Source: Candidatus Parcubacteria bacterium (GTDB taxonomy: Bacteria > Patescibacteriota > Patescibacteriia > Patescibacteriales > UBA12075). Taken from it: a DNA stretch of 47,369 nucleotides. This document shows, piece after piece, positions 71-2,149 of this stretch. Positions within the stretch are counted from its first letter, which is position 1. The number at the start of each line of letters is the position of its first letter. The translations under genes and the position numbers were made by a program. Where the stretch lies: NCBI GenBank assembly GCA_023137275.1, contig JAGLPO010000006.1, positions 1-47,369 on the forward strand, read 5' to 3'. The notes beneath the pieces are model-generated. The model saw nothing but the letters and a program-made list of their open reading frames with translations, ran no database searches and was not told the origin of the DNA.

Positions 71-2149
71 TTATTCCAGATTTTTAACTTTTACGCCAAA
101 CAACCACAATCTTTTAAATAACCAATCTCCGCTAAGCAACTGAAGAAAAGTTTTGGTAATAACGATCGCGGAAAACATAGACACCAACACGCCCAAACCC
201 AGGGTTATGGCAAAACCTTTTACAATACTGGTTGTGAATTGAATAAGGATAAAGCAGGTAATCAGGGTTGAGACATTACCGTCCCGGATTGAAGGCCAGG
301 CGCGATTAAATGAATCAGTCACGGCCAGCGAAAGAGGCTTGCCGTCTTTAAGCTCTTCTTTTAATCGCTCAAAAATAAGCACATTAGCGTCTACCGCCAT
401 GCCGATTGACAGGATAAAACCGGCTAAACCGGATAATGTCAAAGTAACCGGCCACATCTTAAATAAAGATAAAACCAAAATTCCATAAATCATAAGCGAT
501 ATGACAGCCAAAATTCCCGGTATGCGGTAATAAACGATCATAAATACGGCCACCAGAATAAGACCGATTATGCCGGCAAACAAACTTGATTCCATTGAAG
601 CCTGGCCCAGGGTAGCACCGACTGTCTGCTGGCTGATAAGTTCAATCGGAACCGGCAAAGCGCCGGCCTGCAAGCGCTGAGCCAATAATTTAGCCTCTTT
701 AATATTAAAACCGCCGGAAATAACAGCCTGGCCGCCGGTAATCTTTTCATTAACAGTAGGGGCGCTGATCGGGTAACTGTCCAGAAATATAGCCACCTGC
801 TGGCCTATATTCCTGTCAGTGATCTCGGCGAAAAGATCCGAGCCTTCAGAATCAAATTCAAGTGAAACCTGGGGTGAATTATCATTTGGGTTAAATGAAA
901 CAAAGGCCCGTTCAAGATGTTTGCCGGTCAATTCTGTGTTGCTCCACTCCGGCTCTCCGCCCACGATCGCCTCTTTGGTAATAGTAGGCACTATTATGCG
1001 GCTTACTTTGTATTCTATTAATTCCCGTTCTTCCTGCTTATATATTAAATGATAACCAAACTTGGTCTCAACAATAAATGAAATAGTCCCGGTCTTTTGC
1101 GGAAATACAGCGTCTTCAAAAGGCTTGACCATGGCTCCGCGGCCAAACCAGCCAAGATCTCCGCCGGCAGGCGCACTCGGACCGGTTGAATGTTCTCGTG
1201 CCAGGTCAGCGAAATTAGCCGGCGTGGCCTGCGCTTCTATTTCCTTGATCTTAGCCAGCGTTTCATCGCGCGACAAACCATCCTCGCACTGTTCGCTTTC
1301 ATTATGACAAATTAAAATATGCGCGGCCTTGATTTCTTTTTCCGGCTCATTATCGTTAAATGGATTAACTTTAACCTTTTTATCATCCAGCTTAAATATT
1401 TCGTAACCAAGGCCGGTCTTAACCAGGTCCGGCGTTATTTCTCCCTTAACCAGATCTTTAACATAAATAATTATTTCCAAACTGCTTTTCTCTGTCAGCC
1501 AGCCCATGTCCCCGCCCTTATCCTTGGTGTCCGGATCCTGGCTGTATTCTTTGGCTAAAGCAACAAAGTCACCGCCGGAAATTAATTTTCCCAAAACTTC
1601 TTCGGCTTTTATTTCAGCCTGGGCGTTAAATTCATCCATTTGAACTTTTTCTTCCGCGCTTAAATCCCTTACTTCAGACTCTTTTTCCTTAAACTCAAGC
1701 AAAGGGGTTTCCCCGATCATTTGAATAGCTTCATTTACATCGCTTATTCCGGCCAGCTCAACGATCACTCTTGATTCGCTGCCGGAATAACTGGTCTGAA
1801 CAACCGGTTCGCTCACGCCAAACACGTTAACCCGCCTTTCAATTACGTCGCGCACTCCTTCCAGGGCCGCGGCCTGGTCGCCGGCCGGGATTTCTTTCAT
1901 ATCAGCGCGATACACCAAATGAGTACCGCCGATCAGATCCAATCCCAGGCGAAAAGCGATTTCCTTGACCTTGGGCAAATTAACAGATCCATTGGTTTTT
2001 TCACTTAGCCAATCAGTTCCTTGATTATAATAGGCGCCAAAATTTATTAATCCGCCGATAAGCACTAATAAAATTATCAAAATAAAAACCTGCCAGATCC
2101 GTCCTCTGGCGCTTGGTTTGAATATTTTAGTTAAGATATTATCAGGCAT
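71..2149 (-). CDS. secD: Protein translocase subunit SecD with two parvulin-type PPIase domains inserted in the extracytoplasmic head
   Basis: 692 aa. One N-terminal TM, a SecD P1-type region (LDLIGGTHLVY, PLLEFKE), then 5 C-terminal TMs with GMAVDANVLIFER. Residues ~156-395 carry parvulin signatures: FVALAKEYSQDPDTKDKGGDMGW, and AAHILI...FADLAREHSTGPSAPAGGDLGWFGRGAMVKPFEDAVF...TKFGYHLIYK. Confidence 0.85.
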   Translation of the reverse strand: MPDNILTKIFKPSARGRIWQVFILIILLVLIGGLINFGAYYNQGTDWLSEKTNGSVNLPKVKEIAFRLGLDLIGGTHLVYRADMKEIPAGDQAAALEGVRDVIERRVNVFGVSEPVVQTSYSGSESRVIVELAGISDVNEAIQMIGETPLLEFKEKESEVRDLSAEEKVQMDEFNAQAEIKAEEVLGKLISGGDFVALAKEYSQDPDTKDKGGDMGWLTEKSSLEIIIYVKDLVKGEITPDLVKTGLGYEIFKLDDKKVKVNPFNDNEPEKEIKAAHILICHNESEQCEDGLSRDETLAKIKEIEAQATPANFADLAREHSTGPSAPAGGDLGWFGRGAMVKPFEDAVFPQKTGTISFIVETKFGYHLIYKQEERELIEYKVSRIIVPTITKEAIVGGEPEWSNTELTGKHLERAFVSFNPNDNSPQVSLEFDSEGSDLFAEITDRNIGQQVAIFLDSYPISAPTVNEKITGGQAVISGGFNIKEAKLLAQRLQAGALPVPIELISQQTVGATLGQASMESSLFAGIIGLILVAVFMIVYYRIPGILAVISLMIYGILVLSLFKMWPVTLTLSGLAGFILSIGMAVDANVLIFERLKEELKDGKPLSLAVTDSFNRAWPSIRDGNVSTLITCFILIQFTTSIVKGFAITLGLGVLVSMFSAIVITKTFLQLLSGDWLFKRLWLFGVKVKNLE

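Follow-up and report, generated by a model that had tools for sequence, protein, structure and literature searches.

A SecD protein of a Parcubacteria bacterium carries two parvulin-type domains, predicted to be nested, in its extracytoplasmic P1 region

How exported proteins are received and folded after leaving the SecYEG channel is an open question, and no ATP is available outside the membrane. The P1 head of SecDF swings between a membrane-facing and an upright position in a cycle powered by proton flow through the membrane domain, and its cavity crosslinks to precursor proteins (PMC5974789). In Escherichia coli, SurA binds the holo-translocon, with AlphaFold placing its P1 and P2 parvulins on the SecDF P1 head (Troman et al. 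2023, PMC9987972), and PpiD-YfgM is located at SecYEG (PMC9643414). Likewise, the peptidyl-prolyl isomerase (PPIase) lipoprotein Mpn444 of Mycoplasma pneumoniae was crosslinked to SecD (bioRxiv 10.1101/2024.09.05.611430). The E. coli evidence linking SecDF to SurA or PpiD comes from crosslinks, AlphaFold docking and electron microscopy at low resolution. In model bacteria, the folding helper is a separate protein, whereas in the protein described here it is built into the export motor subunit SecD itself. This SecD is encoded by the first open reading frame (ORF) of a 47,369-nucleotide stretch of DNA (the window) from a Candidatus Parcubacteria bacterium (contig JAGLPO010000006.1 of assembly GCA_023137275.1).

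The ORF (71..2149, stop codon at 71-73; this and all further features of the gene lie on the minus strand) encodes a 692-residue protein that is a bona fide SecD, the proton-driven SecYEG partner. It matches the NCBIfam secD model TIGR01129 with 371.4 bits against a cut-off of 244.4, positions 1-397 of the profile covering residues 68-669, and it matches solved SecD and SecDF proteins in phmmer at E=5e-74. In Foldseek, its model aligned to the SecDF structures 5XAN, 5YHF and 3AQP with E-values of 1e-20 to 1e-24 and to the isolated P1 domain 3AQO with a template modelling score (TM-score) of 0.65. Pfam and AlphaFold2 (AF2) both give the topology of a SecD, comprising a first transmembrane helix (TM1), a large external P1 domain with base and head, and five C-terminal transmembrane helices. 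TM1 was assigned from the sequence to residues 17-36 (2042..2101; helix 14-36 in AF2), and the K/R-rich cytoplasmic N-terminus ahead of it places P1 outside the cell. The N-terminal part of the P1 base (residues 63-156, 1682..1963), recognised by Sec_GG (66-85), SecD_1st (98-156) and the alignment to Thermus thermophilus SecDF, terminates in an invariant GETPLLEFKE strand. The P1-head core (residues 402-500, 650..946) is matched by SecDF_P1_head (405-500; profile positions 19-114 of 114, E=1.2e-29) and corresponds to Thermus 160-260. Finally, the membrane domain (TM2-TM6, residues 502-672, 134..646) is covered by SecD_SecF_C over the same residues, by the 3AQP alignment and by AF2 helices at 515-672, and it contains the conserved GMAVDANVLIFER motif. 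In TM4, GMAVD587ANVLIFER aligns with Thermus GAAVDGNVLSFER; D587 is conserved in at least 90% of 99 relatives and is the counterpart of the Thermus proton-path aspartate, D340. The SecDFs of T. thermophilus and Deinococcus radiodurans (3AQP, 3AQO, 5YHF, 5XAN, 5XAP) and E. coli SecD (5MG3) have the same membrane core with GxAVDxNVLxFER, and the P1 base and P1-head core are common to the solved SecDFs and this SecD.

What sets this SecD apart is an insert of ~245 residues (157-401), located right behind the conserved strand PLLEFKE and ahead of the P1-head core. In the alignment to 3AQP, query residues 63-156 correspond to Thermus 30-118 and 407-675 to 160-428, and ~250 query residues occupy the place of a 41-residue Thermus excursion (119-159). 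The P1 head is therefore decorated by the insert, which replaces only this excursion between base and head; the first-pass annotation, made from the sequence alone, had left it undecided whether the head is decorated or replaced. E. coli SecD bears an unrelated insert of ~200 residues at the same P1 site, indicating that the site tolerates insertions, and none of the solved SecDs bears a PPIase. The same annotation had proposed two parvulin-type domains in P1 at 965-1684, which corresponds to residues 156-395, and all the motifs it quoted are present as written. Profile searches bear the proposal out at a level that chance cannot explain: Pfam places Rotamase_2 at 167-264 (E=4.6e-8), Rotamase_3 at 267-372 (E=5.3e-37) and Rotamase, in two stretches, at 277-371 (E=7.6e-36). 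Summed over both domains, which we call D1 and D2, the whole SecD scores 123.4 bits with Rotamase and 127.3 bits with Rotamase_3. Two AF2 models were used for the structural comparisons, one of the full-length protein (mean predicted local distance difference test score, pLDDT, 81.6; predicted TM-score, pTM, 0.43) and one of residues 146-414 only, based on an 81-sequence alignment (pLDDT 92.3, pTM 0.79).

The architecture is widespread. Residues 150-420, used as the query, retrieved over 100 full-length proteins (660-750 residues) that share the Pfam architecture and are 54-99% identical in the insert, most of them unnamed or annotated as "protein translocase subunit SecD" and originating from Parcubacteria, Falkowbacteria and Patescibacteria. 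When a single genome of each species was scanned, at least 599 pattern matches were obtained, of which tblastn confirmed at least 446; those records that carry a name belong to Falkowbacteria, Magasanikbacteria, Uhrbacteria, and Parcubacteria and Patescibacteria groups. The recurrence of the same in-frame architecture in these proteins and genomes, with secF downstream, excludes a chimeric assembly, which had been raised as a possible source of the insert. SecD lengths and architectures were also surveyed in 400 genomes of the phylum, 24 of them from the same class. Within the class, 23 of the 24 genomes have a SecD with a parvulin insert, 14 with a double (frames of 668-731 residues) and nine with a single domain (551-591 residues). 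Across the phylum, at least 47 of the 400 genomes encode such a SecD or SecDF (frames of at least 550 residues), 19 of which were checked by reading the protein and six of these 19 by Pfam. The insert is a lineage-typical envelope feature of the candidate phyla radiation, very few members of which have been cultured.

D2 (residues 271-376, 1022..1339) is a canonical parvulin by its strand order, its Rotamase_3 and Foldseek matches and its conserved histidines H277 and H367. Scored alone, it reaches 76.8 bits with Rotamase and 84.8 bits with Rotamase_3 (cut-offs 21.7 and 22.5). The sequential Foldseek alignments to PPIase domains cover D2, with TM-scores of 0.77-0.85 and root mean square deviations (rmsd) of 1.9-2.8 Å against the PPIase domains of Staphylococcus aureus and Bacillus subtilis PrsA, SurA domain II and Pin1. 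PrsA (4WO7, 2JZV, 6XD8) is closest in fold (0.81-0.85) and shares with D2 a non-phospho-specific pocket of the Par10/PrsA type, with Phe364 ahead of the last histidine. Among 175 relatives, H277 is present in 174 and H367 in all, and the proline pocket of L332, M340 and F344 is invariant or nearly so. The claim that D2 has every parvulin hallmark holds for the histidines and the pocket, and is slightly too strong for the Asp/Cys catalytic position, which is Gly323 in this genome, within a loop one residue shorter. Alignments give Asp as the counterpart of position 323 in SurA-P2 and Cbf2, and in Pin1 it is Cys113; the 175 relatives have mostly Glu (72%), followed by Gly (14%) and Asp (10%). 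Because the His-His pair and the Leu/Met/Phe pocket are near-absolutely conserved, D2 is probably a proline-binding, isomerase-active unit. In its β1-α1 loop, Cys281 and Cys288 (1286..1309) are both cysteine in 174 of 175 relatives, the lone exception having Ser and Ile, and they probably form a disulfide that acts as a clade-specific staple. Five distant variants (L026-L029 and L034) have neither cysteine.

The body of D1 (residues 165-259, 1373..1657) contains a long helix α1, a GGDMGW strand and a GYEIFKL strand, and is matched by Rotamase, Rotamase_3 and Rotamase_2. On its own it scores 54.9 bits with Rotamase and 50.7 bits with Rotamase_3, against the same cut-offs as above. The profile match, together with the pattern of DSSP elements, points to a parvulin fold; the pLDDT of the body is 96-98 in the insert-only model. 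This domain had been described as degenerate and devoid of the HIL strand. The first part of this description is correct: Glu250 replaces the second catalytic histidine and Arg384 the first, and D1 retains Asp205 and GGDMGW and has no Met/Phe pocket motif. The second is not, as β1 is central in the parvulin sheet and D1 cannot simply be without it; the strand is predicted at residues 378-388 (IEYKVSRIIVP, 986..1018), after D2, by the motif of relatives, DSSP, a pLDDT of 98 and covariation. Residues 376-392 read ELIEYKVSRIIVPTITK here and LINEYKARHILIKTKTE, AVEEYKVSHILIRTLSK and similar in relatives, in which segment 378-388 is EYKARHILIKT or EYKVSHILI, the canonical β1 motif of parvulins. At position 384, 51% of the 99 closest relatives have His and 29% Arg. 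Furthermore, positions 250 and 384 covary across 175 sequences, Glu occurring with His, and Asn, Ser or Asp mostly with Arg. The canonical order of parvulin elements (β1-helices-β2-helix-β3-β4) is found in D2, whereas in D1 β1 comes after D2. Sequence and model together strongly suggest that D1 is a circularly permuted parvulin in which the first β-strand has become the last. Its best sequence matches in the PDB are SurA-P1 and the PpiD parvulin (2KGJ), and like these it is probably non-enzymatic. Since both catalytic histidines have been lost in the lineage, D1 most likely serves, by analogy, as a scaffold and/or a peptide-binding holdase.

SecDs with a single inserted domain (L016, L017, L018, L021 and L035; 562-580 residues) display the same order of elements with all catalytic residues present. 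Helix α1 is followed by GGDLGWF, MVKxFExAVF, FGYHIIKK, a hairpin and EVKASHILIKT, after which the SecD head begins. Judged from this order, the single-domain inserts are complete parvulins with β1 at the C-terminal end, that is, predicted circular permutants. Re-permuting L016 in silico increased its Rotamase score from 86.1 to 92.0 bits (+5.9), extending the coverage from 9-96 to 1-96, and its Rotamase_3 score from 98.4 to 107.2 bits (+8.8). The same operation did not extend the profile match of D1 of this genome (55.0 vs 55.3 bits), because its displaced strand is degenerate (Arg384).

Model and covariation strongly indicate that D2 sits at the tip of the β4-β1 hairpin of D1, which would then consist of residues 165-259 and 378-388. 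According to DSSP, strands 365-376 and 378-388 are only one residue apart in both AF2 models, leaving no hairpin between them, so that a single kinked strand runs from D2 into the next sheet. In the insert-only model, strand 378-388 has a pLDDT of 98, compared with 59 for the SecD strand LLEFKE. Mean-field direct coupling analysis (mfDCA) of 175 double-domain sequences (effective number 132, 40-89% identity) placed eight pairs joining D1 β4 (248-259) to 378-389 among its top 100, against a chance expectation of 0.41. These pairs (248-389, 250-384, 255-383, 258-379, 256-381, 248-386, 255-381 and 259-378) have sums of 634-638, the pattern of an antiparallel ladder. None of the top 200 pairs joins D1 β4 to 271-280 or D2 β4 to 378-389, and pairs 274-372 and 273-331 agree with a canonical D2. 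Only the nested reading puts both invariant histidines (277 and 367) in one domain and the degenerate positions 250 and 384 in the other. Two permuted units lying side by side, each made of a body and the strand following it, are excluded by the one-residue gap; they are fitted by no top-200 pair and would leave the invariant histidines in separate domains. The high pTM of the module is explained by the continuous two-stranded ribbon joining D1 and D2. Among the solved structures searched with Foldseek, none matches D1 and D2 as a rigid body. In the literature searched, outside which most subscription journals lie, neither a SecD-parvulin fusion nor a parvulin with a circular permutation was found described, in line with the earlier remark that no characterised SecD of this design was known. 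As far as searched, the architecture is an undescribed variant built from two well-known families, and the nested pair appears to combine two features, a natural circular permutation of the parvulin fold that has not been described before and the nesting of one domain in another.

Comparison with the known parvulin chaperones places the module close to parts of them. SurA (1M5Y) also has two consecutive parvulins, the first inactive and the second of the active type, and it matches the insert colinearly (E=2e-18). Its N- and C-terminal chaperone core is absent here, with the model NF008038 reaching 70.4 bits against a cut-off of 394 and only P1-P2 (173-364) matching. Moreover, the SurA domains are beads on a string, whereas those of the insert are nested through a shared β-ribbon and covalently part of SecD, and this organism lacks an outer membrane pathway of the kind that SurA serves. 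PrsA and the parvulin module would both work on the outside of the membrane in a monoderm cell. The lipobox and the dimerisation/chaperone domain NC of PrsA are missing, the flanks are SecD, and anchoring is provided by SecD; the PrsA models NF002827 and NF002846 score ~80 bits against cut-offs of 343-361, with the match confined to the parvulin part. PpiD (with YfgM) is a tethered parvulin chaperone at the Sec exit of E. coli (PMC9643414), and Mpn444 is a PPIase near SecD (bioRxiv 10.1101/2024.09.05.611430), but both are separate, non-covalently associated proteins, whereas here everything lies on one polypeptide. With the full-length models failing widely, the protein is, by its sequence, not an orthologue of PrsA, SurA or PpiD; by analogy, it plausibly works like them.

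The variants found in other genomes bear on the origin of the pair. The long N-terminal helix of the single forms (LTxEEKxxMxxYNxxAxxKA) and their C-terminal strand are colinear with D1, which identifies D1 as the domain corresponding in position to the single one, and D2 as the added domain. On this comparison, the outer domain is read as having lost its catalytic residues in the double forms, after the addition of D2. Both internal duplication and capture are candidates for the source of D2. Three SecDs of ~800-850 residues (L022-L024) contain one intact canonical parvulin and further degenerate modules, giving three or more parvulin-like modules in total, and in two forms of ~705 residues (L028 and L029) the outer domain is very degenerate. 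The nested pair is also present in fused SecDFs of 1018-1085 residues (L025-L027). Fused SecDF forms have an additional hydrophobic insert between transmembrane helices of the SecD half. In another single-domain SecD (L019:1440-3185, minus strand), both catalytic histidines are gone (FDGLNIIK ... YNVARISIK), which indicates that the permuted domain degenerates also without a nested second domain.

From sequence and analogy, we consider it likely that the insert is, in general terms, a foldase/chaperone module riding on the SecD head. Being inserted directly after the strand that connects base and head, the module would move with the head or adjoin its pivot. The P1 head would take hold of the chain leaving SecYEG and then swing, and the parvulin module on the head would accept the released segment. 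The module would then shield this segment and accelerate prolyl isomerisation at the membrane surface, the cell having no outer membrane. D1 would be the scaffold or holdase, while proline binding and probably catalysis would fall to D2, the two together providing PrsA-like help. In Firmicutes this job is that of the PrsA lipoprotein, and in E. coli that of PpiD and SurA recruited to the translocon.

A simpler function, in which the insert is only a holdase or substrate-capture extension giving the P1 head a larger surface for binding peptides and isomerisation has no selected role, seems to us rather unlikely. It would account for the loss of both histidines from D1, whose closest sequence matches are the inactive SurA-P1 and PpiD parvulins, as well as for Gly323 of D2 here and in 14% of relatives, and PPIase-dead PrsA and SurA still function in vivo. 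Yet H277, H367, L332, M340 and F344 are near-invariant over 175 sequences, unlike in known inactive parvulins, an acidic residue occupies position 323 in 82% of relatives, and the single-domain relatives have the full catalytic set. The same strict conservation of the proline pocket and histidines of D2 makes it highly improbable, and the least credible of the alternatives, that the insert is a structural or docking device unrelated to the folding of exported proteins, such as a spacer to the wall or S-layer or a binding site for an envelope protein. Such a device would be compatible with a permissive site, given the unrelated large inserts found there elsewhere (~200 residues in E. coli SecD), and with the three or more degenerate parvulin-like modules of some lineages (L022-L024). 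The independent evidence for parvulin chaperones at SecDF and the translocon speaks against it.

The third alternative concerns the fold. In a plain SurA-like tandem, the SecD hinge strand PLLEFKE would be β1 of D1, and 378-388 would be a mere linker to the head. The succession of LLEFKE, a loop and helix α1 is indeed the canonical β1-α1 order, and the insert is colinear with SurA P1-P2. However, the Rotamase profiles never place LLEFKE at β1 positions, and 378-388 is the canonical β1 motif in relatives. The pLDDT values of the two strands and the eight top-100 couplings of 378-389 with D1 β4, both described above, also favour the nested arrangement, as does the position of a catalytic histidine on the C-terminal strand of the single-domain relatives. 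Finally, SurA superposes on the module over 221-235 columns only at an rmsd of 11-15 Å, the best query-normalised TM-score being 0.36. We judge a plain tandem very unlikely.

Some points weigh against the nested foldase module that we favour. The pairing of strand 378-388 with 248-259 is strongly suggested by DSSP logic, pLDDT and covariation, but AF2 and mfDCA draw on related alignment signal and are not fully independent. LLEFKE is invariant, and covariation therefore cannot argue directly against its pairing. The pTM of 0.43 of the full-length model leaves the module unplaced relative to the head cavity and SecY. Gly323, also present in a minority of relatives as noted above, may weaken D2 as an enzyme in this genome. 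In vivo, PrsA, SurA and PpiD can largely do without their PPIase activity, and catalysis may not be the selected function. Lastly, the analysis bears directly on architecture, conservation, fold and nested topology, and catalysis, substrate hand-over and the physiological role are inferred.

As a more speculative extension, which we regard as doubtful, the nested module could be coupled mechanically to the P1 head as protons drive its swing, such that each cycle powered by the proton motive force moves a captured stretch of the chain from the exit of SecY to the proline pocket and on to release. The idea comes from the position of the module, spliced directly behind the strand connecting base and head. 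If true, exported proteins would in effect receive energy-coupled help with folding at a place where there is no ATP, and the fusion would be a "Rosetta stone" for SurA, PpiD and PrsA acting on the SecDF head in bacteria generally.

Since the fusion had been proposed as an economical arrangement for a reduced genome, we looked for other PPIases. No intact stand-alone PrsA or SurA was found in the genome (1.46 Mb in 133 contigs, 92% complete), a point that the first-pass annotation had named as a check. Two other proteins qualify this result. One is a cyclophilin (PF00160, 167 bits; contig C128:5475-6233, plus strand) with the lipoprotein signal MRKILFLLIFSLLLTGC, an LLTGC lipobox and a proline-rich linker, so that SecD is not the sole likely external PPIase of the genome. 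The other is the only parvulin above threshold outside SecD, a 507-residue protein (contig C107:16844-17065, minus strand; L003:1384-2907, minus strand) with an N-terminal half of ~270 residues that is very rich in lysine, a single membrane helix and, at the C-terminus, a weak and degenerate parvulin (20.7-25.2 bits) that lacks both the GGDLGW motif and the histidines. Judging from this composition, it is possibly a PpiD-like anchored chaperone. A parvulin match on contig C35 (E=0.072) was rejected as a non-parvulin protein, and the sole FKBP match in the genome is trigger factor. Among the same-class genomes, a separate PrsA-like parvulin of 300-430 residues was found in at least six of the 14 with the double type and eight of the nine with the single type. 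This co-occurrence suggests that the fusion generally adds to a foldase and does not replace it, and the idea of genome economy is not supported in general.

The conserved covalent fusion of a parvulin pair with P1 in hundreds of species provides independent evolutionary evidence for a functional partnership of the two. As a stable single chain, it also lends itself to structural and biochemical studies of the hand-over, and its permutation and nesting are of interest for protein evolution.

As in E. coli, secF is a separate gene beside secD. In this genome, a secF match (TIGR00966, 288 bits) was found at contig C79:10559-11518 (minus strand; gene region C79:10541-11558) with the profile, a tblastn search of the genome with the SecD membrane domain having missed it. 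Its start lies ~35 bases from the end of contig C79 that faces the start of the present contig, reading toward the contig interior, and secD ends 70 bases from the start of the present contig in the same strand sense. Most likely, a secD-secF operon is split by the contig break, the adjacency being deduced across the gap. Among the best 80 related loci, secF is downstream-adjacent to secD in 75, and secA lies upstream in 33.

The genome also encodes three DsbA-like proteins with a thioredoxin fold. One of them, a membrane-anchored protein of 256 residues, lies in the window (42399-43169, minus strand; Thioredoxin_4, 93 bits) and has the active site CGYS instead of CxxC, and the two other family members are on contig C85. 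A search of the genome for VKOR found none. Finally, many records with this SecD (L037, L042, L045, L099, L102, L114 and others) are titled "uncultured Gammaproteobacteria", "Hyphomicrobiales" or "Candidatus Binatia", whereas the sizes of their contigs and chromosomes resemble those of the candidate phyla radiation. Those titled "uncultured Gammaproteobacteria" are binchicken/SRP co-assemblies, one of them an 886-kb chromosome, and such labels from outside the Patescibacteria are probably placeholder or wrong taxon names.

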